The notes beneath the pieces are model-generated. The model was not told the origin of the DNA. It made no database searches and saw only the letters and a program-made list of their open reading frames with translations. A stretch of 64,000 nucleotides of DNA from a virus (lineage: Duplodnaviria; Heunggongvirae; Uroviricota; Caudoviricetes). The stretch is taken from the IMG/VR virus record IMGVR_UViG_2703718815_000003, one strand, 5' to 3'. Below, piece by piece: positions 16,870 to 56,090 of this stretch. The stretch's first letter is position 1, and each line of letters begins with the position of its first letter. Position numbers and translations under genes: made by a program.

Positions 16870-19185
16870 TCAGATTTTGCAGGCTCCGTCGCACTCATCT
16901 TCTGGCTCGACGGCTACAGCTTGCGTCAGTGGATTATGCGGTTCGTCGTCATCACGCTTTCCTGCCCCATCTCTGGTGTTGTGGTAGTAAAGCGTTTTAA
17001 CTCCCATCTTGTAGGCGAGAAGCAAATCTGACAGTAGCGTCATCATTGGGACTTTATCGCCTTCAAAGCGAGAAGGGTCATAGTTGGTATTGGCTGAAAT
17101 AGCCTGGTCAAAGAACTTCTGGATGATCGCCACCTTTGTCAGATAGCCGCGGTTGTCCGGCATATCCCACAGGTATTCATACTGTTCCTTCAGTTTTTCA
17201 AACTCAGGCACGACCATCTTAACGATGCCGTCCTTAGAAGATTTCACCGACACCAGGCCACGAGGCGGTTCGATGCCGTTGGTGGAATTAGTGATCTGGC
17301 TGGAAGTCTCGCATGGCATTTGTGCCGTCAGTGTGGAGTTGCGAAGGCCGTATTTTGCAATACGTTCACGCAGTTCTTCCCACGGCATCTTTAACTCAAA
17401 GTTGGTTTCGCCACTTTCGTCTAATGAAGAACGGTAATGGTCGATCGGCAACTGACCAATTGCGTACTTGGTCTGCTCAAACCAGTCACACTCACCTTTT
17501 GCTTCAGCAAGTCGGCAGCTGGCATCAAGAAGGTAATACTGGATAGCTTCGAACGTTTCATGCACCAGTTTATTGCCAGCGGTATCAGAATAACGAACGC
17601 CATTCTTTGCCAGGTAATAAGCAAAGTTGGTTACACCAATTCCCAAGCTACGACGAGCTTTGGCAGGCACTTCGGCTGCCTCCATCGGATAGTCTTGATA
17701 ATCCAGTAACGAATCCAGTGCAGCAACGGCATAGAACGCCACCTCTTTAAGAGACTCCAGTGAACGGATGGCTCCGAGGTTAAAAGCGGATAAAGTGCAT
17801 AGCGCGATCTCACCGTTCGGGTCGTCGGTAAATGCCAGTGGACGAGTGGGTAGAGTGATCTCCATGCACAGGTTTGACTGGCGAACAGGTGCAAGAGCAG
17901 GAATGAAAGCGCCATGCTCGTTAATATGATCTACGTTCGCAATATAAATTCGGCCCGTGGACGCTCGTTCCTGCATCAGAGATGAGAACAGCTCAATGGC
18001 AGGTACTGACTTCTTGCGAATTGAATCATCGGCTTCGTATTTATGGTACAGCTTTTCAAACAGCTCCTGGTCTGTGAAGAAGGCTTCGTACATATCAGGC
18101 ACATCATGCGGGCTGAACAGAGTGATGTTCTCGCTTCTGACGAGTCGACGGTACATTAGACGGTTACTCATGACGCCGTAATCAAGATGGCGAACGCGGT
18201 TTTCATCAATACCACGGTTATTTTTCACCACCAGCAGACTTTCAACTTCAAGATGCCAGATCGGGTAAAACGCTGTTGCTGCGCCACCACGAACACCACC
18301 TTGCGAACAAGATTTAACAGCCGTCTGGAAATGCTTCAGGAATGGAATAACTCCGGTATGGGTGGCTTCACCATTGCGGATCTCGCTGCCCAGCGCACGG
18401 ATACGGCCAAAACCAATACCAATTCCAGCACGACGTGAAACGTAGTCGATAATTGCGGCTGAAGCTGCACTAATCCCTTTCAGACTATCGCCAGACTCAA
18501 TCAGCACACAACTGGAGAACTGACGGGTTGGAGTACGGACGCCGGCCATGATTGGTGTGGGCAGAGACAGTTTGAACGTACTTGTAACGTCATAGAAACC
18601 TTTGACCATCTCCATACGTGTTTTGCCAGCGCAGTCGTCTTCCCAATTCTGGAACAGACACATGCCTACCAGCATATAGATATGTTGCGGCCCCTCATGA
18701 ATCTCACCAGTAACACGGTTTTGAACGAGGTATTTGCTTTGCAACTGCACCGTAGCTGCATAGCCAAAAAGATCGTCACGTTTCGGCTTAATGTAATTGC
18801 CGAGTTCTTCGATCTCTTCAAACGAATAATGTGTCAGCAAATCCTTGTCATAAACGCCCTTGTTAACGTTCTTGACAATGTGTTGGTAGAAGTTCGGATA
18901 GTCGTAACGACCGAAGGCATCTTTGCGGATTTTAAAAATGTTCAGGCGGGCAGCCACCTGTGAGTAATTTGGTGCTTCTGGTGAGATCAAATCAGCGGCA
19001 GATTTAACCAAAGCCTCATGCAACTGGCTGGTGGTAATCCCATCAAAAATGCTGGCCGCAGCTCCCATTGCTACAGCGGATGCGCTTACACCACGAATGC
19101 CTTCTACGCCATACATTACGACGCGGTTGTATTTTTCTTCGGATAACGGCTCTGTTTGGCCGTTACGTTTTACGATGCTTATCAT
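16870..19185 (-). CDS. nrdA: ribonucleotide reductase class Ia alpha subunit
   Basis: 771 aa; SNLCMEITLPT active-site loop, C-terminal DECDGACKI redox tail. Confidence 0.9.
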   Translation of the reverse strand: MISIVKRNGQTEPLSEEKYNRVVMYGVEGIRGVSASAVAMGAAASIFDGITTSQLHEALVKSAADLISPEAPNYSQVAARLNIFKIRKDAFGRYDYPNFYQHIVKNVNKGVYDKDLLTHYSFEEIEELGNYIKPKRDDLFGYAATVQLQSKYLVQNRVTGEIHEGPQHIYMLVGMCLFQNWEDDCAGKTRMEMVKGFYDVTSTFKLSLPTPIMAGVRTPTRQFSSCVLIESGDSLKGISAASAAIIDYVSRRAGIGIGFGRIRALGSEIRNGEATHTGVIPFLKHFQTAVKSCSQGGVRGGAATAFYPIWHLEVESLLVVKNNRGIDENRVRHLDYGVMSNRLMYRRLVRSENITLFSPHDVPDMYEAFFTDQELFEKLYHKYEADDSIRKKSVPAIELFSSLMQERASTGRIYIANVDHINEHGAFIPALAPVRQSNLCMEITLPTRPLAFTDDPNGEIALCTLSAFNLGAIRSLESLKEVAFYAVAALDSLLDYQDYPMEAAEVPAKARRSLGIGVTNFAYYLAKNGVRYSDTAGNKLVHETFEAIQYYLLDASCRLAEAKGECDWFEQTKYAIGQLPIDHYRSSLDESGETNFELKMPWEELRERIAKYGLRNSTLTAQMPCETSSQITNSTNGIEPPRGLVSVKSSKDGIVKMVVPEFEKLKEQYEYLWDMPDNRGYLTKVAIIQKFFDQAISANTNYDPSRFEGDKVPMMTLLSDLLLAYKMGVKTLYYHNTRDGAGKRDDDEPHNPLTQAVAVEPEDECDGACKI

Positions 19186-29435: not shown

Positions 29436-31775
29436 TTAATCTTCTAGTTCTTCTGTTGGTGATGTCTTCTCTCGTCGGTCATCTATCGTCTGTAAAGCCG
29501 CAATGATTTCAGCTAGTGGCTTCTCCCGATACATCTCGACGATCTGTGATTTGGTGTATTTCTTGTCACCAATTTCAACTCGCCCGCTGGCGTTCTTTGG
29601 CAGGTATCCTTCTTCCAGCATGTACTCGACGAGCGACTCGATAACGTCGAGGCCACGAGTAGGATCGAAGTAGAATTTCCAGGTGCATTTGCCATACGGT
29701 GGTGCAACTTTGTTTTTGATGCACTCTGCGCCTACGTCCTGACCGATCTTCTCTTTCCCATCCTTCATCACCGATGCACCGAGACGGATGCGCACAGAAG
29801 CGTAAAACTTCGGTGAATCGCCGCCTGGCGACGTAGTAGGGTCGCCAAACATTACACCGATTTTTGTGCGAACCTGATTCAAGAAGATGATGCAGGCGTT
29901 GTATTTGCGTGCCCACAAAGCCAGAGTAGGGAAGTTCGCACTCGTCGCACGAGCCAGTGCCGTATTGTCGTTCATGTTCAGCTGATCTTTGTCTTTGGCA
30001 GTGCCTTCAGCCATCTTTTCGAACTTCTCGGCTTTGGAGTTCGGAACCATAGACGCAAGTGAGTCAGCCACGATACAGATAGGTGCTGATTCAGGAATAA
30101 GCTCTTCATCACGTACCAATTTAAGAATTGTGCCGATCAACTCTACAGAGTCTTCGAAGGTATCAGGCTGCTTGTATACCCACTGACCGTCATCCTCATC
30201 TGCGTTCAGACCATTGGCGACAGCCAGGCCAACGTCAAAACTGTTTTCATGATCGAGGAATACCGCCAGACCATCTTGTTTTTGAGCGGAGATCATCGCT
30301 GCTGTTGCAAGGAATGTGTTGTGGCTGATAATCCCGTTAGACCAGAAAGAGTGTGTTTCCGGCATCGCTACGTCGAACGTTGGTGCTTCACCTTCCTCAA
30401 TAGCCACGACTTCGTCGTAGAACAAGTTAGAGCCAATTACCGCTGCCAGTTGTGCAAACAGATGCTCGTTAAAACGATTCTTTCTGCCAATGAAGGAGAC
30501 ATAGATTTCTCGCAGTTTGTCTATTCCGACACGATCGCCGCGGCCAATAACGTGGTCTACCAGAGCGTAGTCTTCACGGGTGGTCTTGGTGAGCGACTCG
30601 TAGAGTGATTTCACTAAGCCGCTGATGTGCGGAACATAGCCTGAGTAAGTGCGGTCAAAACCAATGTCCCGTTTGGTTGCCACTGATAAACGTGCCGGAG
30701 ATTCGAAACCAATCGTTGACAGAAAAAGGTCGTAATTAGAGCCACTGAATGACAGCCGGTAATATGTATTTTCATAACCCGCGACGTGTTTTTCAGAGAT
30801 AGTTGACGTAATCCCCAGATTCAGGAGCATGAGGCGAATTTGCTGTAGCAGCAGCCCACTCGCGCTCACAACCTCAATGCAGCGACCATCATTGACGTGG
30901 CATTCCAGCTCAAAGTAGCCGCGAAGGAATGCAATTTGAGCCTCGCTATTGGCGCGACGCACACTCAACGGAACCTGCTTGCCAGCAGCTTTCTCATACT
31001 CCAGACCATATTCTTTAAAAAGCAGCGAACGCACCTCTTTGCTAAACAGCACATGGTCTTCCGAGCCGTTATGTTTTCTCGTAACTGGCATCTTGTCTGA
31101 TACCAGCGAAATGAGGCGGTAGTACTCATCCTTGATGAAAGGATCTGTGTTAGAAAAATTCACTGAATTTTCAGAGGCCACGTATCCGTCAGCAATTAAA
31201 TAGCCCATCAGTTTTGCGATATTGGCATCCAGGTGCTGATCGCCGAATTGATGTGTGCCAACCATTGAAGGAATCGTGTCGCCTACACTGATTTTTTCAG
31301 CATGTCGCCAGACGACATTACCTAAGTCGTCAACCACACGGATTGGGTGACGGAACGTAGCCTCGATATAACCGCCTGATGCCAGCTTAATACGCTTGAA
31401 TTTGCGACGGTTGTTCCATGTCAGGTGTGAGGTCTTCTCTATCACGCCATTTTCATTGATGAGTCCAACGTTATGCTCTACATCGCGAGTAGTGCATGTC
31501 GCTTTGTACCCTTCAATCTCAAACAACTCTTTCACTGTTACCATTCCACGCTCCGTCAGCAGCATGGTGTCTGCGGTAACACATTTCCCTGCACTTGGAG
31601 GACCGAATACTTCGACGATACGACCACATGGGAAGCCGCCATCGTAACGACCGGAAATAGCTTTGTTTAACGGTGGAAAGCCTGTATCAATCCAATGAGT
31701 TACTTTCTGAATTTCGTCGTTGCTACCGATTTTCTTTTTCAGAGCAAGTGCCAGTGCGGATTTTCCTTTTGCCAT
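29436..31775 (-). CDS. RecA-like recombinase interrupted by an intein
   Basis: extein: Walker A GPPSAGK|T split by insert, plus NQVRTKIGVMFGDPTTSPGGDSPKFYASVR RecA core; extein about 357 aa. Confidence 0.8.
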   Translation of the reverse strand: MAKGKSALALALKKKIGSNDEIQKVTHWIDTGFPPLNKAISGRYDGGFPCGRIVEVFGPPSAGKCVTADTMLLTERGMVTVKELFEIEGYKATCTTRDVEHNVGLINENGVIEKTSHLTWNNRRKFKRIKLASGGYIEATFRHPIRVVDDLGNVVWRHAEKISVGDTIPSMVGTHQFGDQHLDANIAKLMGYLIADGYVASENSVNFSNTDPFIKDEYYRLISLVSDKMPVTRKHNGSEDHVLFSKEVRSLLFKEYGLEYEKAAGKQVPLSVRRANSEAQIAFLRGYFELECHVNDGRCIEVVSASGLLLQQIRLMLLNLGITSTISEKHVAGYENTYYRLSFSGSNYDLFLSTIGFESPARLSVATKRDIGFDRTYSGYVPHISGLVKSLYESLTKTTREDYALVDHVIGRGDRVGIDKLREIYVSFIGRKNRFNEHLFAQLAAVIGSNLFYDEVVAIEEGEAPTFDVAMPETHSFWSNGIISHNTFLATAAMISAQKQDGLAVFLDHENSFDVGLAVANGLNADEDDGQWVYKQPDTFEDSVELIGTILKLVRDEELIPESAPICIVADSLASMVPNSKAEKFEKMAEGTAKDKDQLNMNDNTALARATSANFPTLALWARKYNACIIFLNQVRTKIGVMFGDPTTSPGGDSPKFYASVRIRLGASVMKDGKEKIGQDVGAECIKNKVAPPYGKCTWKFYFDPTRGLDVIESLVEYMLEEGYLPKNASGRVEIGDKKYTKSQIVEMYREKPLAEIIAALQTIDDRREKTSPTEELED
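30318..31583 (-). mobile_element. intein with LAGLIDADG homing-endonuclease domain inside the recombinase P-loop
   Basis: begins with Cys after GPPSAGK, block B TFRHP, LAGLIDADG-like LMGYLIADGY and LRGYFELE, ends ...IISHN followed by Thr (+1 nucleophile). Confidence 0.7.
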
Positions 31776-34713: not shown

Positions 34714-34743
34714 TAAGAGAAAACATGGCCATAGAGGCCATGT
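34714..34743 (-). terminator. intrinsic terminator
   Basis: acatggcc-ataga-ggccatgt hairpin followed on minus strand by TTTTCTCTTAT. Confidence 0.6.
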
Positions 34744-34751
34744 TTATTGGA

Positions 34752-37700
34752 TCACGACTTAATAGTTTCTGCTACGTCGGCTAATATCGCTTCTAGTCGT
34801 TCTCCCTCTTCAGGTCTGAAGTAAAGAATGTTGGGGTTAAACCCGTAAAAGACTGTAACGTCAAGGTCTGGAAGATACTCCTTCCTACCGACTAAATCGG
34901 ATGGCTTGTTTTTGTTGTTAAACAATGCCGTTGCCCGACTGCCACACGTCAGCACATAGGTCGGACGTACCAGATTGATCTCTTCACGCATAAAGTCGGT
35001 GAACTGGCCGATCTCGTCTTTGGTGTAGTCCTTTTCTTTGTCTTTCACCTTTTTGCAAACGCCTGTGACATAGAGATCGCCCATGCGCAAATCTCCAGCC
35101 GTCAACAGCTTGGCCTTAAAATCGTCGTATCCGTTCTCCATGAAGTAACCGGTTCGAGCATCATTGCCGTTTGCATTGTCCAGAATGATCATGATTTTCG
35201 GCTTAATACCAATGCTGGGGCGGATTAGTTCATCACCTAAGCCCATTTCAGCCGCCATCCGTGTCATGAGTGCGTTAATTTCAGCCGATCGTTTGGGGTT
35301 CATCTCAAACGGACGTGAGGCTTTAACTGCGTCTATGACAAGGTTTCCCATCAATTCTGCCTGGTCGCGGAGACGCTCTGGATCAGTTGCTGGCAGACTG
35401 CCAGGCTCGATGGCTGCAAATGCCCCTACTTTTTGCAGCGATTCGCGAACTCGACTATTACAGGCACGTTTCTCGACAGCTTCTTCGAATTGCGCAAGTG
35501 ACTCGAATTTGCCGCCAACCTTTTCTCGCGCTCTCATGATGGCCTGGCAGCCATTCTCAGAACACCCCTTCACAGCAGAGAAGGGCGCATACAGCACCTG
35601 GCTGCCATCTTCAAGCGTGCGGATCTCGATTCGGTTTGATGACACGTTAACGTCTGGTGGCAATACGCGAATACCATAGGTCAGCGCATCTTTAACCAGC
35701 CCCTGGTGTTTATCTTCGCCAAGAATAGTGAGAGCAGCAGCGAAAAACTCTGCGGGGTAATGAGTTTTCAACCACATAGATTGATAACTGATTAAGGAGT
35801 AAGCAACAGAGTGTGATTTGTTGAACTGGTAGGCACCATTTTTTTCGAATGCGGTCCAGATCTCCTTCGCTTTCATCTCTGATAGCCCTGGATGTGACGC
35901 TGTAACACGTACTGCGTTTATAGGTAGTGTTGCTCCGTGCTCAAGTGCCTCTTCGACAGTTTTCAGAGTTCCGTCTTCGCATTTAAAATGTTCCGCACGG
36001 TGAATGCGCTGCGTAGTGCCATCTTCCAGTTCAACGTCTATCCAGCCAGCTTGAGCCTGAACGATGAACTTCTCGCCCATGCTCTTCATTTTTTCCATGT
36101 CCTTTTTGCCGATCGCTTTACGAACACCGTCAGCTTCAGCCATTGTGAAGCCAGCAAGCAATCGAGTCGCGTTCATCGTCTGTTCCTGATAGAGAATCAC
36201 GCCATTTGTTTCTGCGGTAAGTTCATCAAGAACGGGGTGTAATGATTCCGGCGTCATAAAGCCTTTGGCGACAGAAACATAATCATCCAACATGCCTGAC
36301 TGAATTGGTCCCGGCCGGAAGAGCGCAGTCGTAGCAACAACCGTTTTAAAGCTCATTGGCTCAATTCCACCACCTAAATCTTTAAGCAGCTTGCGCATTG
36401 GGCCTGATTCAAGCTGGAAAACACCTTGAGTGTACCCAGCAGCAAAACCATCCAGCACCTTGCGATCTTCAAGAGAAATGGCATCAAGATTGATATCTTC
36501 ACCTGTGTTCTCTTTTATGTAGCGTTTTGCACTATCGAGCAAATCGAGAGTTGCCAGACCGAGTACGTCCAGCTTAATTAGGCCCATAGCCTCGCAGTAA
36601 CGCTTGTCAAATGCGATACAACGCGCGTCACCACGGCGTTCAACCGGTGTACGTTCTGTCAGAGGAACACCTGCTACGATCATCCCTGCCGCATGTCTAC
36701 CAAAGCCACGCATAAGGCTTTGTAACTTGCAGGCTGCATTGAATGCATCAGGATATTTTGTTGCGTATTTGTCGAGACTTGCCAGTTGTTCGCGCAGTTC
36801 TTCCAATGGAAGGCTATCATCCTCGACGTTCTTCAGTTCTTTTGATACCGCCATATCTGCGGACTCCACACCATAAATACGAGCGGTGTCACGTAGTGCA
36901 GAGGCTGCGCCCAGATATGTGAAGTTCGGAATACCCGCAACGTAATCTTCGCCGTAGCGTTCATTCAGATACTCGATCACTTCATGGCGACGTGCCTGGC
37001 TGAAGTCCAAATCCGCATCCGGCAAGTCGAGACGCTCAGGGTTGATGAAACGTTCAAACAGAAGACCGTGACGGATTGGGTCGACGTTGGTTATGCCTAT
37101 GCACCATGCCACCAAAGAGCCAGCAGAGGAACCACGACCAGGCCCAACGGGAATGCCAGTTTCACGACTATGATTCATCAGATCGCGCACCATCAGGAAG
37201 TAACCACAGAATCCCAGGCGAGTCAGCGTGTCCATTTCGTACTTTAGCCGCTCAACATAAACCCTGTTCTCAGAAGCCGGTGGTGTGTAGCCAAACTCTT
37301 TTGTGGTAAGACGTTTACGCAGCCCAGCAACGGCCAGTTTCATCAGAGTTGCAGGCTCGTCGTCTGCCATCTTTGGCAGTGCTGGTGGCAATTCATGCCA
37401 GCGCCATGTGCAGGCATCGATAATGGTATCCTGCGTTGTTGAGGCCATTGCAGCTGTTACCGGCACATCCATGCGAACGGAGAAGGCTTTAAGCGCCTCA
37501 AGGAGATGGCGGCGACCATTGACGGCGTTATCTCGCTGGTGGGGGATACGCAGACGATGCGGCTGGTCGATTTTGATGTTGTTCGTAACCATGTGCGCAA
37601 TGTCTTTAATGTCTGCATCGTCGATCGATTCGTAATAAGCGGGATAGAACGCCACTGGCTCTATTTTCAATGCGCTGGCGACTTTCATCGCCCGGACGTT

Positions 37701-38270
37701 AATCTGGTCGTAGAATGGGGTAGGATGCGGATAAACCACACTATAGAAGTTGTCTTTTCCACCCGCTGTAATCAGTGTGCTTATAATTTTTGCAAAATCG
37801 TTGCGTTGGAACACGCTACCGATGTCGGAAGTAAGCAGGATGATGTTGCCTTTGGCATATGTAGAAACCAACTGTTCGAGCGAGAGACGCGGTACAAAGT
37901 AGAACTGTTCTCGTGTGTTGGCCGCCGTCATTAGTTCGCAGATGTCGCGATATCCTTGCTCATTTTTAATTAGAGCGGTAAACGAGTAGTTACGTCCCCG
38001 CTCTAATGATTCCATACATCTCATAGATTCTTTAGCAAGTTTAGCCCGGTGCTCGTATGTGGGATCATCAACAATGTTTAGTTTCACACCACAAATAACC
38101 GCCATGTCGTCACCAGCGGCACGTTGTAGTGGAATAACACTTGCAATATTCATGCTATCTGCTGAAATTACAGCGGTGTAGCCAGCTTCTCTGGCAATCT
38201 TCACCGCGTTTTCTGCTTTTAGAGCCGACTCCCCAAGTGAGAAGTCAGTTCGAACCATCAGTGCCTTCAT
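34752..38270 (-). CDS. dnaE: DNA polymerase III alpha-type (DnaE-like) replicative polymerase
   Basis: 1172 aa; N-terminal PHP-like domain; GPGRGSSAGSLVAWCIGITNVDPIRHGLLFERFINPER core motif. Confidence 0.85.
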   Translation of the reverse strand: MKALMVRTDFSLGESALKAENAVKIAREAGYTAVISADSMNIASVIPLQRAAGDDMAVICGVKLNIVDDPTYEHRAKLAKESMRCMESLERGRNYSFTALIKNEQGYRDICELMTAANTREQFYFVPRLSLEQLVSTYAKGNIILLTSDIGSVFQRNDFAKIISTLITAGGKDNFYSVVYPHPTPFYDQINVRAMKVASALKIEPVAFYPAYYESIDDADIKDIAHMVTNNIKIDQPHRLRIPHQRDNAVNGRRHLLEALKAFSVRMDVPVTAAMASTTQDTIIDACTWRWHELPPALPKMADDEPATLMKLAVAGLRKRLTTKEFGYTPPASENRVYVERLKYEMDTLTRLGFCGYFLMVRDLMNHSRETGIPVGPGRGSSAGSLVAWCIGITNVDPIRHGLLFERFINPERLDLPDADLDFSQARRHEVIEYLNERYGEDYVAGIPNFTYLGAASALRDTARIYGVESADMAVSKELKNVEDDSLPLEELREQLASLDKYATKYPDAFNAACKLQSLMRGFGRHAAGMIVAGVPLTERTPVERRGDARCIAFDKRYCEAMGLIKLDVLGLATLDLLDSAKRYIKENTGEDINLDAISLEDRKVLDGFAAGYTQGVFQLESGPMRKLLKDLGGGIEPMSFKTVVATTALFRPGPIQSGMLDDYVSVAKGFMTPESLHPVLDELTAETNGVILYQEQTMNATRLLAGFTMAEADGVRKAIGKKDMEKMKSMGEKFIVQAQAGWIDVELEDGTTQRIHRAEHFKCEDGTLKTVEEALEHGATLPINAVRVTASHPGLSEMKAKEIWTAFEKNGAYQFNKSHSVAYSLISYQSMWLKTHYPAEFFAAALTILGEDKHQGLVKDALTYGIRVLPPDVNVSSNRIEIRTLEDGSQVLYAPFSAVKGCSENGCQAIMRAREKVGGKFESLAQFEEAVEKRACNSRVRESLQKVGAFAAIEPGSLPATDPERLRDQAELMGNLVIDAVKASRPFEMNPKRSAEINALMTRMAAEMGLGDELIRPSIGIKPKIMIILDNANGNDARTGYFMENGYDDFKAKLLTAGDLRMGDLYVTGVCKKVKDKEKDYTKDEIGQFTDFMREEINLVRPTYVLTCGSRATALFNNKNKPSDLVGRKEYLPDLDVTVFYGFNPNILYFRPEEGERLEAILADVAETIKS

Positions 38271-38450
38271 GTGTTTTTACCTTTCTGGTTTTTTTGATTT
38301 TGTCATTGGGGAAGCCTACGAACTTCCCATACATCGAAATCGCAACTTCTTTTGCTGATTGGTGACAATCGGGCTTGTCTGGACACCCCAGACAAGTCTT
38401 GCCAGTTTCAGAAGCAGCGATAAGAGAGCCGAAACATCCTTTACGCACGA

Positions 38451-39686
38451 TTAACCAAATATTTTTTGAACAACTTCACGAGCCGCTTGCGCAGAAGCTG
38501 AAGGGAGTTTGTTAATGAAAGAACGCTCAATACCTGTCACAAAGTCGCCTCGCATCATTCCAATCTTGGCCGACAACAAAAGCTCACGAGGCCCAATTGG
38601 CTGGCTGATAAGGTGTTCTTCATATCCATCGCGAACGATACCGGCAAACTTAACCATCTTTTCAGCGTATTCATCCACGATGCCGGCATTTATCAACATG
38701 TTGATCTCTGCCTCTTTGCTCATGTATTTCACATTCGAAACGATGCCAAAACGTGAAAAGTTCGCGGCGTTCTGGATGTTTGTACCCTGGTACAAGCCGG
38801 TTTCATCACCAGAACCGTTTGTGTTGCCAGTGCCAATGAAAGCAAACCGTTCATGCGGAGTAATGCGACGCCATTCTGGAGTCGCCTCTTTGATGACCAA
38901 CGCTTCACCTTCCAGCACTGGCTGATACACGCCAAGAATCTGTGGAAACGCAAAGTCGTATTCATCCGCGAGGTAAACCCAGCCATGCTTCATTGCGAGC
39001 GCAAGCAAGCCAGGCTCGAAATACGTAGAGCCATCACGCGCCAGAATTTGTCCCGTAACATGAGCCTCTTCCATTGATGCTGTATGTTGGGCACGGATTA
39101 ACGGACGATTGAGCAAAGCACATAGTTGTGTAGGCAATGAAGATTTGCCTGTTCCTGCATGACCCCACAAATAGCCAGGTATGCCAAGTTCAAGCATCAT
39201 GAAAATGTCTTTGATCAGTTCGAAGTCGCCATATACGTATCCCTTCTTCACTTCTGGAACGAACTCTGGAAACGGCGTATTGACGTTGACGCTAACCATG
39301 AGCGGCGTCCCACGTTTTGTTCCGAGTTCTTTCACCGTTACATTTAGCAGTTCGTGAGCTGCGACCAGATCTGTCTTGTACTCAACTGTGCCTGTGTAGC
39401 CTGGGCTACTGGTCACGCCAGATGATTTGGCCATTTCGCTTTTTTGCTCGGCACGTTTAGCTTGAATTGCATCAAGTGCCTTTTTCGATAGCGTTGGCTC
39501 ATCTGGAAACTGTGTTGTGTACATTTTCAGTACGGTGTCAGGATCGGCATCTTTTACTGACTCAGGAATGCCCTCGCAATTACCATTGGCTACATGGGAC
39601 TTAAAATAGTGAAATGATTTTCCGCACCACTTGCAAACAAGGTAATCAGAAGGATTTTTTTCATTTTGCAGTGCAGTAGTAGTCAT
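38451..39686 (-). CDS. AAA+ ATPase, CobS/MoxR-like
   Basis: Walker A GHAGTGKSS, Walker B VYLADEYDF. Confidence 0.7.
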   Translation of the reverse strand: MTTTALQNEKNPSDYLVCKWCGKSFHYFKSHVANGNCEGIPESVKDADPDTVLKMYTTQFPDEPTLSKKALDAIQAKRAEQKSEMAKSSGVTSSPGYTGTVEYKTDLVAAHELLNVTVKELGTKRGTPLMVSVNVNTPFPEFVPEVKKGYVYGDFELIKDIFMMLELGIPGYLWGHAGTGKSSLPTQLCALLNRPLIRAQHTASMEEAHVTGQILARDGSTYFEPGLLALAMKHGWVYLADEYDFAFPQILGVYQPVLEGEALVIKEATPEWRRITPHERFAFIGTGNTNGSGDETGLYQGTNIQNAANFSRFGIVSNVKYMSKEAEINMLINAGIVDEYAEKMVKFAGIVRDGYEEHLISQPIGPRELLLSAKIGMMRGDFVTGIERSFINKLPSASAQAAREVVQKIFG

Positions 39687-39781
39687 GCGTTTTTCCTTTG
39701 TTTTCTAATGAGCGTTCAACTTCTTATATAAATATATCATTATCTATCGTAAGTGGTTACTTATCGTTAAGGCTGTTTTGT

Positions 39782-41890
39782 TCACTTTAAAATGATACGA
39801 GATAGTTCAGTAACTACAGATGAACCAAGACTATCAACGCTCGTTACCAGGGCATGATTTGAGTAAAATCTCTCCGGTGCATCAGTCATGATGCCAATTG
39901 CCATCAAATCAATGTCAGTCTGCGTTTCAATTTGCTTCGCAACTGAACGCAAATGAGCGTCAAAACCTCTCCCAACAGCCCACGGCGCGCCATCACTCAG
40001 AACAAGCATGATCTTCCTGTCCTCCAAGCGACCGGAAAATAACGATGCAAGGCTGGCTATGCTTTCACCATCCACGTTATTAAGAAGTGGGAATGTGTAG
40101 CCTACGCACCCCATACGTGAGCGAACTTCGCGAGAATTTGCTTTTTCATTCCAATTTTTGATGATAGGTAGCATTAAAGATTCAAAGCGAGAGAACTCAT
40201 ATTTGATAGCCTTAAGTTCTCCTGCTGCCATATGACTGCCAAATGTAGTGAAGCCGGTGATAATGTTGGGAACATTTATTCGATCAAGTGCATCGGCGAT
40301 GGTATATGCACTTGCAAGAGCTAGTTTTATCGTTTCGCCACTCATTGAACCCGATAAATCAATCACTTGTTGAACACAGGCGTTAACGGCTTTAGATTCT
40401 TCTTTTTTACGAAACACGCGATCATCATTCATTGTTAATCTGTAGATACTTGAACCATGAATGCGCCCCCGACGCTGGCCAGGTATAAACTGAACTCTGT
40501 TTCTGCTTGCTATTGCACGTTCCAGGTCTTTTGCCAGCGTCGACGAAACACCTGACGAAAGGTGCTTTTCAATATATTTGTCGAAGAGTTGGTTGCCTTC
40601 AGGAACGATGCGATAACGGCTGATTGGATATCCACCTAAATCAATATCGGAGAATGTTTTAATAAGCCGTTTGATATGGGCTTCTGCCTGATCAATCGAG
40701 CCGATGAAGTCGTATGAGCGATTGTATGGCCTGTATTCGCTTTTCGAGCTTTCTGTTAACTCGCTTTTAATCGTTTCGGATAGCGCATCTTCTGTCATGC
40801 CTCCGACTTCATCTTCCATGCTATCCAACTCCTCTAAAGCCTCTTCCAGACTCATTTTTGACGGAGTTGGAATGTCTGAAGAGCCGTCTTCTGTCGTTTT
40901 TCTTTTTTCGTGGTCAGCGGTTAATGATTCTGACGCCGCGTTATCAGAAGCATCAGAATCTGATACCGCTTTATCATTTTCTGTATCATCGAATATTGTT
41001 TCTGATGATTCAGGATTATCTGAATCATCACTGTCGTTATTATCATTTTTGTGCTTACTATGTGACTCTGATTTAATAGATTTGTGATTATCTAACGATG
41101 AGGGTGTCTCATGATCTTCGTTGTCTTCATTGTTTTCTCCAGAGGCATCCGTCTGGTCAGCGTCTGAAGGATCGGAAGTTTTTCCCGGAGCTGACTCCTT
41201 ACCTTTGCTTTCACTTTCAGTGTCTTTGAGGATCTTAGCTATGGTCGCAGCCACCTTTACACAATCCTCGGTGCAAGACATGTTACGCACGGCCACATCG
41301 ATACCATGTTCTTTTAATAATGAAATTGGTTTCTCAATGACAGGCCAATATTCATCCATGAAATCTACGAACGGTGCTTGGCCATCCCAGGCTCTTACAA
41401 CCGGACAGAGAAAGAAGTTTAGAACAAGCGCGCGCTGATCTTTGCCACAATAAGCAATAGCCTCTGAAGCCTTTGGTTTAAAGACTTTTTCGATTATAAG
41501 GCGCTGAGTTGCCATCAGATTACGTCCTGTTCCGTTAAAGACCTGACCCATTTTTCGCTCGATGAACACGTCTTCTAAGGCATTCCATAGCGACCAGGAA
41601 GGAACGCGTCCTTTTTCTCTCATTTTGTTGGACACACGAATATCGGTAAACAAAATGTGAGCAACCTCATGATCGAGAAATCCGCGCACAGCATTCATCA
41701 ATGCCGGTGTTGCGTTATCCGGGATTGATGGGATGTTTACGAGAATTGGCTCTCCATCATCGTTATAGCGTACATAAGCGTCGTCCCCTCGTTCTGCAAC
41801 AGGGATGTTTTTACCTGAAAGGAGAGCGACTACTCGTTTTACACTGTCACGGAAGTCCTGAACCTCTTTGATGGAACGTTTTTTAGACAT
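39782..41890 (-). CDS. von Willebrand factor A domain protein, CobT-like
   Basis: central acidic low-complexity region; C-terminal vWA with MIDAS motif DLSGSMSGE. Confidence 0.65.
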   Translation of the reverse strand: MSKKRSIKEVQDFRDSVKRVVALLSGKNIPVAERGDDAYVRYNDDGEPILVNIPSIPDNATPALMNAVRGFLDHEVAHILFTDIRVSNKMREKGRVPSWSLWNALEDVFIERKMGQVFNGTGRNLMATQRLIIEKVFKPKASEAIAYCGKDQRALVLNFFLCPVVRAWDGQAPFVDFMDEYWPVIEKPISLLKEHGIDVAVRNMSCTEDCVKVAATIAKILKDTESESKGKESAPGKTSDPSDADQTDASGENNEDNEDHETPSSLDNHKSIKSESHSKHKNDNNDSDDSDNPESSETIFDDTENDKAVSDSDASDNAASESLTADHEKRKTTEDGSSDIPTPSKMSLEEALEELDSMEDEVGGMTEDALSETIKSELTESSKSEYRPYNRSYDFIGSIDQAEAHIKRLIKTFSDIDLGGYPISRYRIVPEGNQLFDKYIEKHLSSGVSSTLAKDLERAIASRNRVQFIPGQRRGRIHGSSIYRLTMNDDRVFRKKEESKAVNACVQQVIDLSGSMSGETIKLALASAYTIADALDRINVPNIITGFTTFGSHMAAGELKAIKYEFSRFESLMLPIIKNWNEKANSREVRSRMGCVGYTFPLLNNVDGESIASLASLFSGRLEDRKIMLVLSDGAPWAVGRGFDAHLRSVAKQIETQTDIDLMAIGIMTDAPERFYSNHALVTSVDSLGSSVVTELSRIILK

Positions 41891-41988: not shown

Positions 41989-42201
41989 TTAACAGATTCT
42001 GACGGCTAAAGACCCGGAGCCGGTATTGAGAAGCGTGAAGCGTTTGTTGTTAAGTTCGAATATAAATCCAGTTGTGTCATTCACACCAACCTGAATCTGC
42101 TCATTCGGTAGATCGGTGAGGATGTCAGCTACACACTCATCAGCTAATTTCTGTACGTGTCCGATCTCAAGAGCGATTAGGCTGGAAATAGTGGTGTTCA
42201 T
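41989..42201 (-). CDS. hypothetical protein
   Basis: 70-aa ORF. Confidence 0.3.
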   Translation of the reverse strand: MNTTISSLIALEIGHVQKLADECVADILTDLPNEQIQVGVNDTTGFIFELNNKRFTLLNTGSGSLAVRIC

Positions 42202-42451: not shown

Positions 42452-42838
42452 ATGTCTGATAACAAGATTGAATTTATAGAAAGTCGCTACGCTGCTTTTA
42501 TCGCAGGGTTGATTGAATCCTCACCTATGAGCCAGGCCCAGATAGCCAAAACAATTGGGTATAAAAACGCCAACAACCTTTCTTTAATTAAAAGCGGCAA
42601 AATTCCTTTGCCTATCGATAAGGTTCGTCCGCTGGCGCTGGCACTGGGCATTGAGCCAAGTCGTCTTATGATGATGGTGCTGGAAGAACGCCAACCCGAA
42701 CTCGCAGCATTTTTATACAAAGAAGGCACTGCTCCTCTTAACGAGGACGAAAAACAGGTTCTTGCTGCATATAACGAGCGATTCGGTAAAGAGAAAGGCG
42801 CATCACAAAAGGTTGTTGAGGCCATAAAGTCTCTATGA
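42452..42838 (+). CDS. XRE-family helix-turn-helix transcriptional regulator
   Basis: HTH SQAQIAKTIGYKNANNLSLIKSGK; plus-strand gene convergent with recombinase. Confidence 0.65.
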   Translation: MSDNKIEFIESRYAAFIAGLIESSPMSQAQIAKTIGYKNANNLSLIKSGKIPLPIDKVRPLALALGIEPSRLMMMVLEERQPELAAFLYKEGTAPLNEDEKQVLAAYNERFGKEKGASQKVVEAIKSL

Positions 42839-43936
42839 AAAATTTACACGAATAAGCTCTGTTGATAGACGATCTCCCTTAAATTTGTGGTCAATTTCGT
42901 CTAAATCCGGTTGCTCTACGATTGATGCGATGTACGTCGAGAAACTTTCTAAGGCGTCTCGCATCTCGTCCATATAATCGTGACGGTCGTAGACCCGATC
43001 TATCCCCTCAAGACTGTGGTTCATGATTTTACGTGATACCTCCTGGCTTATGCCTAATGCTGGGAAGTAACTACGCGCAGTACGGCGCAAATCTCGGGGT
43101 GTAAATGGCTCAAGCTCCATCAGTTCTGGTCGTTCCAGAATACGACGTAATGCCTGGGCTATTGCCACTTTAGACATAGGAAGGTCTTTCCCGATTTTTT
43201 TATTCGAAGGCACGAGCCACTGGCTGTCTTTACCATATTCGAACAACTCTTCAATACAAGTGCGCATTAATGAGCTTAAAGGCAGAGAATGCTCACGGGC
43301 AGATTTGTTCCTCTTGCCTTGATTCCAAACCCCACGCTTAAGATTGAACTCACTTTTTTTAGCCCGCAGTACTTCGTCAGGTCGTCTTGCTGATACAAGA
43401 CACAGTCTGGCCGCCCATTTTGTACCAGCGCACACATTGAAGTAGTCCCATATATTCCAGAACACCCATACCTCTGCGTCAGTCAGCTTCCGCTCGCGGG
43501 GCGTGGGCTTTGCGCCACCGGCAACTTTGTTAAGTGACATATCGTTTAACGGTGACACGTCTATCATCCCCTGGAAGGCGCACCAGCTAAGGAACTGCTT
43601 CATCAGAGAGAAAACGCGGCGGCCCATAACAATTTTGCCATCCAGTATTAGTGGGTTGACCAGTTGGTTCACCATGAACCTATTAATATCACTTACTTTT
43701 ACATCGGCAATGTGCGGCAAAACATGTATCAAAATACAATGAACAGCGATCTCTGGCCGACGTCTGGTTATCAGCAGAGATAAGCGAGTGAATAACATGA
43801 ATGCGTCCGAGAATCTCATGTCATTGCTAACCTGGGAGATCATAACGGCCTGCATTTGAGATGCTCTTTCGAGATACTCAATCGCCTCTTTTGAGGTGTT
43901 CTCCGCAGCGCGTGCTCTGTCAAAGCTATTTTTCAT
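42833..43936 (-). CDS. tyrosine recombinase / integrase
   Basis: C-terminal catalytic region with ...RRPDEV..., TPRDLRRTARSY and HSLEGIDRVYDRHDY (R-K-H-R-H-Y-type arrangement). Confidence 0.75.
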   Translation of the reverse strand: MKNSFDRARAAENTSKEAIEYLERASQMQAVMISQVSNDMRFSDAFMLFTRLSLLITRRRPEIAVHCILIHVLPHIADVKVSDINRFMVNQLVNPLILDGKIVMGRRVFSLMKQFLSWCAFQGMIDVSPLNDMSLNKVAGGAKPTPRERKLTDAEVWVFWNIWDYFNVCAGTKWAARLCLVSARRPDEVLRAKKSEFNLKRGVWNQGKRNKSAREHSLPLSSLMRTCIEELFEYGKDSQWLVPSNKKIGKDLPMSKVAIAQALRRILERPELMELEPFTPRDLRRTARSYFPALGISQEVSRKIMNHSLEGIDRVYDRHDYMDEMRDALESFSTYIASIVEQPDLDEIDHKFKGDRLSTELIRVNFS

Positions 43937-44668: not shown

Positions 44669-45790
44669 ATGGTATGGTCGATTAGGTATCATTCAGTTTC
44701 AAAATTAACCAAAGACACTGATAAAATGCCTGTTTTGTTAATCCTCATACTTGGGACAGTGATGATTATTTTCTGGGATACCGTCAAGGAAAACGTAGAG
44801 GTCATAGGTACACTTGCCACTTCACTTGCATTTTTCGCCACAGCATGGGCCGCTTACGAGGCAAGGCATAGTGCAAAGGCAGCAATGAGGGCCACTAGGC
44901 TGACGGCAGCTTCACTCCTTGAAATGAAAAAAGCCTCTTTTAAGGAATGGTACGGCATATTACTTGAACAGCATAATAGATTACTTGAGGATGTTAACAA
45001 GACCTTGCAGGATGATAGGGAACTTAATGCAAAACTGGGAACGAATCTCATCAAGGCTATTTATTACCATGTAACCAAAAACTCCGTTTACATTAAATAT
45101 ATTAACCACATAGTTTTAATTCTTGATTATTTAGATAAAGACTTCTATTCGCCGTCATCAGCCGATTATGAAAAGAGAGCTTACATAGAACAGCTGCGCA
45201 ACAGCATTAGTCCTAATGTAAGCCTGCTGATAGCTACATTCGGCCTTAATATTGACACTAATAAAACCTATGACGCAAAGAGGCTTTACAGCCTGCTAAG
45301 CAAGTATAACTTCTTCGAAGGCCAACTTTTTTTTGAAGAAGCAATATCGAAAGTTCATTATTTGGACTCTTATGCTGCTGTGATATTTGATAACGAATAC
45401 CGAAAAGATGTAGAGTTTTATGTTGAAGAAATGGTTCGAGGTCGTGAGACCCCTAAAATCGATTCAAGATATCGTCATTTAAGGGCTACGTTCGCAATTC
45501 TGTGGTCTTACAACAACCCCTGCCGACAACATTTGCTTCAAAGATTTAATGACCTACCTATGCATATGCGAAACAGCATTGAGCTGAGGATGGAAAATGC
45601 AGCCGATAAAGTAGCTGAGTTCAACTCTTTGTTACTTGGTTTTATAGGCTGGGAGCTTAGAATCGCAGGTAATAAAGTGAGGGTGATCAAGGATGAAAAA
45701 CATTTAAAGAGGCTAATAAAACTCAACGATAAGTATCCTATTCCCCCCCCGAGAGAAAGGTATTCTGTTAACCAATGGTTTCACCAATAG
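44669..45790 (+). CDS. membrane-anchored hypothetical protein (plus-strand moron; 3' end may be frameshifted at a C8 tract)
   Basis: 373-aa ORF, N-terminal hydrophobic helices; C8 run at 45743..45750; +1 frame stays open to 45957. Confidence 0.45.
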   Translation: MVWSIRYHSVSKLTKDTDKMPVLLILILGTVMIIFWDTVKENVEVIGTLATSLAFFATAWAAYEARHSAKAAMRATRLTAASLLEMKKASFKEWYGILLEQHNRLLEDVNKTLQDDRELNAKLGTNLIKAIYYHVTKNSVYIKYINHIVLILDYLDKDFYSPSSADYEKRAYIEQLRNSISPNVSLLIATFGLNIDTNKTYDAKRLYSLLSKYNFFEGQLFFEEAISKVHYLDSYAAVIFDNEYRKDVEFYVEEMVRGRETPKIDSRYRHLRATFAILWSYNNPCRQHLLQRFNDLPMHMRNSIELRMENAADKVAEFNSLLLGFIGWELRIAGNKVRVIKDEKHLKRLIKLNDKYPIPPPRERYSVNQWFHQ

Positions 45791-46138: not shown

Positions 46139-46225
46139 TGGCGGAGAGTAATGGAATCGAACCATCATCGCTTGCGCAATGGGACGGTTTTCAAGACCGC
46201 TTGAGCACCATGCTCCCTACTCTCC
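46139..46225 (-). tRNA. tRNA-Ser (anticodon UGA), CCA encoded
   Basis: manual fold: acceptor GGAGAGT/ACTCTCC, anticodon loop CTTGAAA, long variable arm, T-loop TTCGATT. Confidence 0.75.
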
Positions 46226-46438
46226 AGTTGTTGTGGTGCCGGGGGCTTCCCGGTGTCCTTTGGCTGGTTATCCACCGTGGACGGAGCCAATAGTCATCAC
46301 AAAGGATCAATATAACCATTTCCCCGCGTGCGCTTAGCCGCATTCACCACAACGAAAAGAGCACTGTATGACGTTTGCACGGACTTACGCTTAAAACAGG
46401 GCAGTCTCGGCGGTTCTCAATGCTCTTTCCTGTTGTGT

Positions 46439-46514
46439 TGGTGCCGGTTAACGGATTCGAACCGCCGACCATTCGCTTACAAGGCGACTGCTCTACCAAC
46501 TGAGCTAAACCGGC
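46439..46514 (-). tRNA. tRNA-Thr (anticodon UGU), CCA encoded
   Basis: manual fold: acceptor GCCGGTT/AACCGGC, D-arm GCTCAGTTGGTAGAGC, anticodon loop CTTGTAA, T-loop TTCGAAT. Confidence 0.75.
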
Positions 46515-46518
46515 AATT

Positions 46519-46605
46519 TGGTGGGGAGTGATGGAGTCGAACCACCCGAGTCGCAATGACAGTAGATTTACAGTCTACACCGCTACCTCTACGGACTAAC
46601 TCCCC
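46519..46605 (-). tRNA. tRNA-Tyr (anticodon GUA), CCA encoded
   Basis: manual fold: acceptor GGGGAGT/ACTCCCC, anticodon stem GTAGA/TCTAC with loop CTGTAAA, long variable arm. Confidence 0.75.
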
Positions 46606-46610
46606 TAAAT

Positions 46611-46685
46611 TGGCGATGGTGGGTGGATTCGAACCACCGACCAGTTGGTTAACAGCCAACTGCTCTACCGCTGAGCTACACCATC
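46611..46685 (-). tRNA. tRNA-Asn (anticodon GUU), CCA encoded
   Basis: manual fold: acceptor GATGGTG/CACCATC, anticodon stem GTTGG/CCAAC with loop CTGTTAA, T-loop TTCGAAT. Confidence 0.75.
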
Positions 46686-54217: not shown

Positions 54218-54317
54218 CTGGTAGGTAGTTACTTACTTATCACAATGAGCTGATGATAGCGATTGGTGGCAGTTTTTGGAAGTGGAAACGGAAGGGAGTT
54301 GTTCTGGTGGGTATCTT

Positions 54318-54372
54318 TTGAAAGACCTGCTTCCGTATATTTAATAAGTTACTTATTATTTATATACAGAAA
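54318..54372. repeat. 57-bp palindromic element, copy 2
   Basis: cctgcttccgtatat ... atatacagaaacagg; near-identical to 8995..9052. Confidence 0.6.
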
Positions 54373-54386: not shown

Positions 54387-56090
54387 TTAATTATTAAGCA
54401 ATCTGCTCACACGTAGTTTGTTAAGACTTGATCTAGAGGCCAGTTTCGTTAATGCACCTATTGCTTTATTCGTGATTTTTTGCTGTTCTTCTGTTAGTTC
54501 TTGCATACTTTTGAATCTGAGCAACCCCTTTCTCACTAAATCCAAAGCATCCTGATTGCGGGATAATATCCACTTTAAATAATCATCTTCAGAGAAACTG
54601 TTAAGATATGCTATGTCACTATGATTAAATTTGCCTTCAATTATTTTGTATAAAACATTCTCTAAATTAGTCTCTTCAGGCTTCTTATTCATCAATTTTT
54701 TTTGAATTAGCAGACCTAACTTTTCGTTACCAAATATCTCTACATACAAATTCCGAAAAGCAGTATAAGCATCATCTTGGCTAACAAAGGCATCTGCATA
54801 TGCCTCTATATAACTATCACAATCAATCTCCAATCTATTTAAGATATCAATCAAGCCTATGAAGTGAGCAACAGGTATGTGTGAAAGATTGTCGTTAATT
54901 ACACATTTTATCTTAGAAATAAACTCAGATTCATTGTCCTTGAATGAGTCACTAAAAATATCCCAAACATTGTTAACCTCACATAAAGCCTTGTGTTCTT
55001 TATATTGTTTATTTTTTTCTTCTATTATACCTCGAATATTGCTTTCAGTAGAAAGATAACCATTCTTGAGATAAAAATCTATGTCATCATCGAAAGCAAT
55101 TTCCGCTCGTTCATAAATAATATCAAGACTATTAATAAATGAATATACAGAATCATCCTTTTTATCATCTAACATGTAATCAAATACATGTATGTTTTTA
55201 ATTGATTCTTTAAACAAGGCATAATCAACACCTGGAACACCAGAATAGTAAACCACTGAAAACAGAACCAATCTATTGATAAAACTTTCTCTAACCTTAT
55301 CCTCTGCCAAGCTTAGCTCATTCCTAAGATTAACCAGAGATGTTTTTATTTTATTTAATATACGGATATTTTTAATGCCTAAGTCATTTGCTAAGACTTT
55401 TAACAAAAGAAAATCAGAATCAGTTTCATAAAAAACTTTACGTAAGTTCTTCTCAGGCGTAGGATCGTATTTTATTTCGACATCAATTACTTTTTCTCTG
55501 TACTCTAAAAACTGTTTTTTTGCAGTTTCATCATGTAAATTATCTTCATTTAAAATTAGAACAACTTTGCAGCCTTTTCTTCTTGCCAATTCATCAATTA
55601 CCCCCATAATTTCTTTAACTTCTAGCGAATTACCTTTTCTTTCAACATCATCAATACAAACCAAATAATTATTAACAAATTTATACTCAAGAGATGACAG
55701 CAGGTTATCTGTTTTGAACCCAAAAAAATCGTTCTTTCCGAAATGTATTAAAAATTTTGACAAGGAGTTGTATTTCAACCATCCCAAAAACCCATTTCTA
55801 TAACGAATCATAGTTCGATCCGTTTCAGATAAAATTAGTTCTTTATATTTCTTTTCATTAATTGGTGTGGCACAATGATAAAGAGCTTTTTTAATATCAC
55901 CAATAGAGTTAACCCCAAACAAAGAAACATACGAATATGCATTAAAATCTAATCCTTCAGAATGCTTAGTATAAAAACTATTCCAATAATGAGTTTTACC
56001 AACGCCCCAATCTCCTTTTATGACGGCAACCCGATGATCTGAAACTAGAAAATTTTTTAGAAATGATTCTATCGATTCCATTAGTATCAA
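54387..56090 (-). CDS. KAP-family P-loop NTPase
   Basis: KAP-type Walker A GDWGVGKT and Walker B-like LVCIDDVER; gene markedly more AT-rich than neighbours. Confidence 0.6.
   Translation of the reverse strand: MILMESIESFLKNFLVSDHRVAVIKGDWGVGKTHYWNSFYTKHSEGLDFNAYSYVSLFGVNSIGDIKKALYHCATPINEKKYKELILSETDRTMIRYRNGFLGWLKYNSLSKFLIHFGKNDFFGFKTDNLLSSLEYKFVNNYLVCIDDVERKGNSLEVKEIMGVIDELARRKGCKVVLILNEDNLHDETAKKQFLEYREKVIDVEIKYDPTPEKNLRKVFYETDSDFLLLKVLANDLGIKNIRILNKIKTSLVNLRNELSLAEDKVRESFINRLVLFSVVYYSGVPGVDYALFKESIKNIHVFDYMLDDKKDDSVYSFINSLDIIYERAEIAFDDDIDFYLKNGYLSTESNIRGIIEEKNKQYKEHKALCEVNNVWDIFSDSFKDNESEFISKIKCVINDNLSHIPVAHFIGLIDILNRLEIDCDSYIEAYADAFVSQDDAYTAFRNLYVEIFGNEKLGLLIQKKLMNKKPEETNLENVLYKIIEGKFNHSDIAYLNSFSEDDYLKWILSRNQDALDLVRKGLLRFKSMQELTEEQQKITNKAIGALTKLASRSSLNKLRVSRLLNN

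Follow-up and report, generated by a model that had tools for sequence, protein, structure and literature searches.

A CobS/CobT-type AAA+ ATPase and vWA protein in the replication module of an SSU5-like phage-plasmid: a proposed motor-adaptor pair that is probably not a cobaltochelatase

In the CobST and NorQD systems, an extension of a vWA protein enters the pore of a hexameric AAA+ ATPase, and ATP-driven rotation or twisting is passed via this adaptor to a client near the MIDAS (metal ion-dependent adhesion site). In Brucella, it has been described that the CobT 'shaft' enters the pore of the CobS ring and that helix a1 of CobT contacts the CobS small subdomain (bioRxiv 10.64898/2026.07.21.739949). 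Viral cobST pairs have previously been reported from archaeal and bacterial viruses (Liu et al. 2021), and a pair made up of a MoxR AAA+ ATPase and a vWA domain fused to an N-terminal metallopeptidase has likewise been described (Iyer et al. 2021). The genes cobS and cobT rank among the most cited phage auxiliary metabolic genes, listed under 'B12 synthesis' in cyanophages, pelagiphages, roseophages, archaeal viruses and virome surveys. The pair analysed here is located at positions 38451-41890 of a stretch of 64,000 nucleotides (nt) from the tailed-phage record IMGVR_UViG_2703718815_000003, which is referred to as the window throughout. On balance, the pair is taken to be an AAA+ motor and adaptor of CobS/CobT type within the MoxR-vWA class, part of the lytic (early, replication) programme and with a client that is not CobN. 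That it works as a cobaltochelatase in this host is improbable.

The region carrying the pair shares 98.2% identity with Escherichia phage Cyrano, the SSU5-like phage-plasmid carried by E. coli LF82, and 99.7% with a plasmid from E. coli. It was matched in 465 PLSDB plasmids (Escherichia, Enterobacter, Yersinia, Salmonella, Citrobacter and others), and Salmonella phage SSU5 showed 74% DNA identity over the 60% of the region aligned by megablast. The ATPase of 411 amino acids (aa) shows 100% identity to its Cyrano counterpart, and the 90%-identity clusters of the two proteins comprise 1077 and 3307 member sequences. The ATPase matched phrog_249 ('porphyrin biosynthesis', 2e-106) and its 702-aa partner phrog_1576 (2e-299); with both families matched by adjacent genes in a tailed-phage genome, the locus falls within the viral cobST cluster. 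The pair is the catalogued set of 'CobT/CobS-like' genes of SSU5-type E. coli phage-plasmids, and its sequence and annotation are already public. Database labels vary between 'porphyrin biosynthesis protein', 'cobalamin biosynthesis protein CobT' and 'AAA family ATPase', whereas the Cyrano record (OV696614.1 43137..46576) names the CobT-like protein 'dimethylbenzimidazole phosphoribosyltransferase' and the CobS-like protein 'cobalamin synthetase'. The Cyrano labels are a naming mix-up, arising because unrelated Salmonella enzymes bear the same names CobT and CobS, and an annotation error that can propagate.

Domain architecture of the ATPase and its adaptor

The two genes and the elements of their products are as follows (position, strand, description):

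38451..39686, minus strand: CobS-like AAA+ ATPase, 411 aa (Pfam AAA_5 2e-15, phrog_249, PDB CobS 9ujv 1.8e-25)
39582..39647, minus strand: candidate Ros/MucR-type C2H2 zinc finger, residues 14-35 of the ATPase (ligands C18, C21 and H31, with H26 or C37 as the fourth)
38454..39266, minus strand: AAA+ module, residues 141-411 (Walker A 39141..39164, Walker B 38961..38978, sensor-1 N288, arginine finger R312, sensor-2 R367)
39782..41890, minus strand: CobT-like protein, 702 aa, with zincin-like N-domain, acidic linker, shaft-like hairpin and MIDAS-vWA domain (Pfam CobT_C 1.5e-82, CobT 3e-26, phrog_1576)
41201..41890, minus strand: N-domain, residues 1-230 (helix a1, three-stranded sheet and helical bundle), homologous to the CobT N-domain
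41657..41671, minus strand: HEVAH (HExxH), residues 74-78, on helix 62-81
41558..41575, minus strand: invariant E106 and E111, on the next helix, 96-117
40751..41233, minus strand: acidic, serine-rich low-complexity linker, residues 220-380 (49 D+E vs 14 K+R in 161 residues)
40391..40504, minus strand: basic hairpin, residues 463-500, aligning with the Brucella CobT 'shaft' Q373-R413 (9uka_G)
39785..40390, minus strand: vWA domain with complete MIDAS (D511-x-S513-x-S515 at 40346..40360, N605 and D633)

An earlier note, made from the sequence alone, had placed two open reading frames (ORFs) here, coding for an AAA+ ATPase with Walker A and B motifs and a 702-aa protein with an acidic low-complexity centre and a C-terminal MIDAS-containing vWA domain, and had likened them to chelatase or MoxR-vWA systems. 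The reading frames, the motifs and the profile matches listed above bear this description out, and so do the comparisons of sequence and fold: the nearest sequences with solved structures are CobS and CobT, and the nearest solved folds are those of NorQ and CbbQ in the case of the ATPase (Foldseek, E 1e-15, TM score ~0.85) and of NorD-VWA and Midasin-MIDAS in that of the vWA domain. In the ATPase, the Walker A motif reads GHAGTGKS (residues 175-182) and Walker B includes D241-E242. The full AAA+ catalytic set is intact, with G175-S182, D241/E242, N288, R312 and R367 aligned to G71-S78, D141/E142, N186, R210 and R271 of Brucella CobS, from which the residue roles are taken (bioRxiv 10.64898/2026.07.21.739949). 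The AlphaFold2 (AF2) model of the protein (mean predicted local distance difference test score, pLDDT, 86.7) has a MoxR/dynein-type AAA+ fold, and the adjoining gene codes for a MIDAS-vWA protein with a shaft-equivalent hairpin, as in the MoxR class. A clamp-loader-like role was rejected, the ATPase being of the MoxR/dynein class and not of the RFC class.

The 702-aa protein (PDB CobT 9uka_G, E 3.2e-17; AF2 model with pLDDT 82 and predicted TM score 0.75) shows the complete CobT layout of N-domain, disordered acidic linker, shaft and vWA domain with MIDAS. The N-domain piece alone matched Pfam CobT at 1.4e-20, and its AF2 topology agrees with the published description of Brucella CobT_N. It could be aligned by MAFFT with the N-domains of 84 cellular CobTs, which backs a weak profile match to Brucella CobT_N (domain independent E value 0.81), and helix a1 is conserved. 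A phmmer search of PDB sequences with the N-domain alone returned only chance matches to superoxide dismutases. Within the linker, residues 233-337 have pLDDT values < 50 and are predicted to be disordered; the equivalent segment of Brucella CobT is disordered and comprises ~90 residues. The strands of the hairpin are predicted at positions 465-472 and 493-499, and G471, G475, L482, D489, R491 and F493 are invariant or near-invariant. The MIDAS residues D511/S513/S515/N605/D633 align with D422/S424/S426/N518/D546 of Brucella CobT.

Departures from cellular CobS and CobT

Both proteins lie far outside the profiles that define true chelatase subunits. The ATPase scored 84.8 bits with the CobS equivalog TIGR01650, against a cut-off of 558.55 (E 5.9e-24, residues 141-411 only), and its partner scored 68.4 bits with the CobT equivalog TIGR01651, against a cut-off of 759.05 (E 4.9e-19). 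Neither CobN nor cobalamin-dependent enzymes are annotated in the 108-kb Cyrano record, and neither was seen among the ~26 window ORFs scanned, which are part of all ORFs in the window; host genomes were not searched directly. From what is established on enterobacterial cob genes, E. coli is without an aerobic B12 pathway and lacks CobN and its substrate, and the Salmonella route is anaerobic. B12 synthesis in Salmonella follows a CobNST-independent route, and de novo B12 synthesis in E. coli requires heterologous cobN, cobS and cobT together with ~28 other genes, including the rest of the aerobic pathway. The ribonucleotide reductase (RNR) encoded by the phage is of class I (NrdA with ATP-cone, 16870..19185; NrdB, 15621..16763), and the window also encodes a thymidylate synthase and a glutaredoxin-like protein. 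Since an RNR of class I needs no B12, the idea of viral CobST supplying a B12-dependent reductase is inapplicable here, and B12 supply for a class II RNR was rejected as a role in this phage. Gene order is inverted as well, the CobT-like gene preceding the CobS-like gene in 9/9 viral-type lineages (the window and eight others), whereas cellular loci read cobS then cobT in 81 of 84 cases.

The degenerate zincin site expected of cellular CobT is not present in the window protein, which carries HEVAH instead. As judged from the AF2 model and the alignment, H74, E75 and H78 lie on one helix, with E106 and E111 as candidate downstream glutamates. Relatives were sampled as the 146 full-length representatives among the best 150 of 5047 50%-identity clusters (E <= 1e-3); HExxH is kept in 143 of them, as is the MIDAS motif DxSGSM (likewise 143/146). 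An alignment of 51 sequences shows no variation at E75, E106 and E111 and almost none at H74 and H78. By contrast, none of the 84 cellular CobTs, all of them proteobacterial (Rhizobiales, Sphingomonadales, Rhodobacterales and Burkholderiales), contains HExxH (0/84), the aligned site reading GD[SA]xAL[RQK]. The resemblance of this domain to an M48C peptidase domain goes back to the crystal structure report on Brucella CobT_N, whose authors drew the comparison. Viral variants in which HExxH has been replaced amount to natural 'protease-dead' forms that retain the MIDAS.

Two features go beyond the earlier note: in the 702-aa protein, the HExxH motif (residues 74-78), and in the ATPase, a candidate zinc finger of CxxC...H form (residues 18-31). 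The finger is part of an N-terminal region of ~140 residues by which the ATPase exceeds cellular CobS. Across 33 ATPase homologues, down to 44% identity, there is little or no variation at C18, C21, H26 and H31, and the AF2 model of the region has a beta-beta-alpha topology. A profile built from 24 ATPase N-termini found PDB 2jsp (Ros87) at E 1.4e-4, and 14 of these 24 sequences individually matched Pfam ROS_MUCR (PF05443), with a best value of 1.7e-5, below the gathering score. Judged from these alignments, the assignment would hold at the level of the family only.

Genomic setting and expression

The genes next to the pair are as follows (position, strand, description):

41989..42201, minus strand: 70-aa ORF, first in line behind the divergent regulatory region and likely opening the transcription unit (phrog_2627, 8.8e-41; = CYRAN_46)
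38245..38448, minus strand: 67-aa four-cysteine ORF (phrog_6337, 1.3e-45; hypothetical in plasmid records and SSU5)
34752..38270, minus strand: phage DnaE-type DNA polymerase III alpha, the last gene of the unit (PHP, pol3 alpha, finger and HhH domains)
42452..42838, plus strand: helix-turn-helix (HTH) regulator, upstream and divergent
42833..43936: tyrosine integrase, upstream and divergent

On the minus strand, the 70-aa ORF is followed by the CobT-like gene, the CobS-like gene, the 67-aa four-cysteine ORF and the gene for the DnaE-type polymerase. The GTG start of the 67-aa ORF is located 2 nt past the stop codon of the ATPase gene, and its 3' end overlaps the start of dnaE by 26 nt. The sole minus-strand terminator-like site between positions 42201 and 34700 is a hairpin at 34745..34721, just after dnaE, and the pair appears, from this arrangement, to be co-transcribed with dnaE. 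Downstream of dnaE lie genes for a UvsY-like protein, a gp32-like single-stranded DNA-binding protein, a 5'-3' exonuclease and an intein-bearing RecA. The placement given in the earlier note, between a polymerase and a regulator/recombinase block, thus holds, with DnaE downstream and the HTH regulator and tyrosine integrase upstream.

The same surroundings are found in distant phages. When viral contigs were scanned with an ATPase alignment, only close relatives (78-100% identity) were retrieved, and the distant contexts were found via contigs encoding distant homologues. A block of integrase/repressor, CobT, CobS, small genes, DnaE, gp32, 5'-3' exonuclease and RecA is conserved at only 45-47% ATPase identity, its carriers including an uncultured phage of 96 kb and a prophage of Ectothiorhodospira. 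The CobT-CobS-DnaE core recurs among primase, ligase and RecA genes in Pseudomonas phage phiK7B1 and Rhizobium phage RHph_N1_10. Unrelated phages, too, have the pair in the replication region: in the cyanomyovirus S-PM2, it is situated between gp46/gp47 and gp45/gp44/gp62, and JSF27, an ICP2-like podovirus of Vibrio, has it upstream of helicase and PolA genes. Taken together, these comparisons support a sharper form of the earlier reading, in which the pair stands outside the true chelatase subunits, carries a zincin motif absent from cellular CobT and keeps a linkage to the polymerase across distant phages that is not incidental.

Expression in lysogens was taken from the supplementary table of Misson et al. 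2023, whose RNA-seq data for LF82 lysogens were re-analysed as normalised counts:

CobT-like protein (CYRAN_47): 7.8 normalised counts
CobS-like protein (CYRAN_48): 6.7 normalised counts
DnaE (CYRAN_49): 10.1 normalised counts
Terminase subunits: 7-8 normalised counts
RepA: 133 normalised counts
Repressor: 96 normalised counts
HicA: 294 normalised counts

With counts at the level of the terminase, the pair is silent in lysogeny and belongs to the repressed lytic programme, rather than being a plasmid-maintenance or lysogenic-conversion gene. A role in lysogeny or plasmid maintenance was accordingly rejected, the lysogen counts being at structural-gene level and 10-20x below those of RepA and the repressor.

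Further observations were made on the neighbouring genes. The 67-aa ORF is unannotated in Cyrano, and its slot is occupied in distant relatives by a sigma-70 region-2-like protein and a protein of ~170-190 aa. The DnaE proteins of distant relatives carry a C-terminal domain of the uracil-DNA glycosylase family (PF03167); residues 920-1171 of the window DnaE match phrog_4335 and phrog_13175. In Cyrano, a separate epsilon-like exonuclease is annotated elsewhere. Clamp or clamp-loader genes were not seen. The window RecA gene (29436..31775, minus strand) contains an intein with a LAGLIDADG homing endonuclease, and RecA with an intein also occurs in the Ectothiorhodospira prophage.

Elsewhere in the window, a 567-aa ORF (54387..56090, minus strand) in a patch of low GC content (GC 0.33, 54001-56000) matched phrog_4740 and PDC-S49, a defence candidate in PADLOC (E 2e-22, residues 6-226), and is probably accessory defence cargo beside helicase and primase genes. 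A 373-aa ORF (44669..45790, plus strand; phrog_18168, GC ~0.40, no Pfam or PADLOC match) lies between the integrase/glutaredoxin-like genes and a tRNA cluster; because Cyrano has another small gene here (CYRAN_43), whose expression is very high, it marks a variable cargo site. The cluster (46139..46685, minus strand) comprises four tRNAs (Ser-TGA, Thr-TGT, Tyr-GTA and Asn-GTT), whereas the Cyrano annotation gives three (Asn, Thr and Ser). The thymidylate synthase gene (13400..14530, minus strand) matched Pfam Thymidylat_synt (ThyA type), and its Cyrano counterpart is annotated as ThyX, which indicates either a module swap or a mis-annotation.

Possible roles and comparison with known systems

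According to the proposed mechanism, the 411-aa ATPase would form a hexameric ring. The N-domain of the 702-aa partner would dock on the small subdomains of this ring, with the basic hairpin (residues 463-500) entering the pore, and ATP hydrolysis would then twist or pull the adaptor, whose MIDAS face would grip an acidic residue of a client standing in for CobN. The conserved zincin motif suggests that the client is cleaved: given the intact HExxH...E in the adaptor N-domain, it would probably be processed proteolytically as well as remodelled. The Ros/MucR-type finger suggests an action on or near DNA, to which it may anchor the machine. Candidate clients include a phage or host replication or recombination protein and a metalloenzyme (RNR R2, the DnaE PHP domain or SbcD). 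A more specific proposal would make the pair an ATP-driven, MIDAS-targeted metalloprotease/remodeller, DNA-tethered in SSU5-type phages and integral to lytic replication, with cellular CobS/CobT as a derived, protease-inactivated branch and not the source of a host-derived auxiliary gene; in this full form, it is considered unlikely. Its roles might be, for example, to activate or assemble the phage DnaE replisome or to remove replication and nucleoid proteins of the plasmid mode or of the host when lytic replication sets in.

Several observations weigh against a motor-adaptor pair with proteolytic and DNA-linked functions in replication. In the CobT-like protein of Pseudomonas phage phiK7B1 (6847..8931), SEISK replaces HExxH, and three of the 146 sampled representatives read KEVAN, QQVAR and HQVAL at this site, so that proteolysis would not be universally required. 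The cellular CobT sample consists of 80 Rhizobiales sequences together with Pandoraea, Sphingomonas, Cereibacter and Caballeronia. Fold searches with the full-length model returned only vWA matches, which filled the lists, and did not confirm a zincin fold, and a relaxed Pfam scan of four viral N-domains, up to E 10, matched no peptidase family. The N-terminus of the window ATPase alone is too diverged to reach significance for Ros/MucR and gave only a weak zf-C2H2 match, and the finger is specific to SSU5/Nickie/Rhizobium-type ATPases, being missing from those of cyanophages and ICP2. The linkage to replication genes may reflect merely early timing, which is common to auxiliary metabolic genes. 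The earlier note had called the substrate unknown, and this still stands: no functional study of, or experiment on, viral CobS/CobT was found in the searchable literature, so that every functional step of the proposed mechanism is inferred.

Some hosts of related phages (such as Rhizobium and Pseudomonas) have CobN, and CobS and CobT are the closest characterised homologues of the pair, with domain order, MIDAS and shaft conserved, both of which would fit a true auxiliary metabolic gene whose products replace or supplement the host motor, drive host CobN and raise cobalamin. For the window pair, such a role is nevertheless highly improbable: the scores are far under the equivalog cut-offs, CobN was not found in the Cyrano annotation or among the window ORFs scanned and is, like its substrate, lacking in E. 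coli, the RNR is of class I, HExxH is kept where cellular CobT has none, the two genes stand in inverted order and there is an extra candidate zinc finger. Moreover, unlike a sporadic cargo gene, the pair is present in every examined representative of this ~100-kb phage lineage. This metabolic role was put forward for viruses of archaea and bacteria (Liu et al. 2021), and most database labels correspond to it.

For jumbo phages, a role in virion assembly has been proposed by analogy with a MoxR-vWA pair needed in tail development of the Acidianus two-tailed virus (Iyer et al. 2021); the pair with its fused metallopeptidase would act there as a chaperone and protease that folds or processes structural proteins. 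The architecture described in that study is the same as here and HExxH is conserved, yet this role is judged unlikely, since the pair lies in an early/replication block far from head and tail genes in all nine lineages, gene position being indirect evidence, and the window pair is apparently co-transcribed with dnaE. Such an early position would also suit host take-over or counter-defence, in which an ATP-driven protease/remodeller inactivates a host defence factor, a nucleoid protein or a part of the replisome: the two genes are the first large ones past the divergent region of the repressor, the zincin motif is intact, and the Ros/MucR-type finger resembles xenogeneic-silencer-like DNA binders. 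This explanation is decidedly unlikely, with no known anti-defence match and no credible PADLOC match for the pair; PADLOC returned only a marginal DrmE match (E 7e-4) to residues 340-533 of the CobT-like protein, starting in its acidic linker, and none for the ATPase. In addition, the pair spans phages of cyanobacteria, Vibrio, enterics and Rhizobium, which favours a conserved or phage-encoded target over a lineage-specific defence protein.

We argue that the metabolic label is wrong for at least part of the family, because the peptidase motif is kept, some carriers infect hosts lacking CobN and the genes reside in a replication-gene neighbourhood. The public annotations need correcting in any case. 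An E. coli phage-plasmid of the Cyrano or SSU5 type offers a genetically tractable place to learn the role of the pair, and the function of viral cobS/cobT becomes directly testable through the contrast in HExxH, the inversion of gene order, the finger of Ros/MucR type and a tractable host devoid of CobN.

Among the known systems, Rea1/Midasin is a dynein-like AAA+ ring whose MIDAS domain grips the ubiquitin-like domains of ribosome assembly factors; it differs in being a single eukaryotic polypeptide of 4,700-4,900 residues in which six AAA+ modules are fused and a peptidase domain is lacking. NorQ-NorD and CbbQ-CbbO, which serve in metal insertion into nitric oxide reductase and in Rubisco activation, provide the best solved-fold matches for both proteins and place a vWA finger in the AAA+ pore, with the linker remodelled for the client, whereas sequence identity is only 14-22%, a zincin-like N-domain is missing from NorD and CbbO, and the clients they serve, NorB and Rubisco, are absent here. 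Ros/MucR, a prokaryotic C2H2 zinc-finger domain that binds DNA as part of a stand-alone regulator (PDB 2jsp), agrees with the ATPase finger family in its CxxC...H...H spacing and in a 'Y..(K)F/W' segment that comes next; in the phage protein, by contrast, the candidate finger, a putative DNA binder, is fused to an AAA+ ATPase, and the window copy is diverged, with C37 as its possible fourth ligand. Brucella melitensis CobSTN (PDB 9ujv and 9uka; bioRxiv 10.64898/2026.07.21.739949) has the same AAA+ catalytic residues, the same adaptor layout and a conserved CobS-contacting helix a1, but its CobST lacks the N-terminal finger extension of the ATPase, whereas for the phage pair no CobN was found, HExxH is intact and the gene order is inverted. 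The window pair is a member of the viral cobST or 'MoxR-vWA-metallopeptidase' family, which includes the 'porphyrin biosynthetic proteins' of SSU5 and the CobS and 'peptidase' of cyanophages. SSU5-like, Nickievirus, Rhizobium, ICP2-like and T4-like cyanophages share the gene order and the replication-module position of the window pair, and nothing material differs at the level of the pair, the finger being confined to the SSU5/Nickie/Rhizobium-type ATPases.

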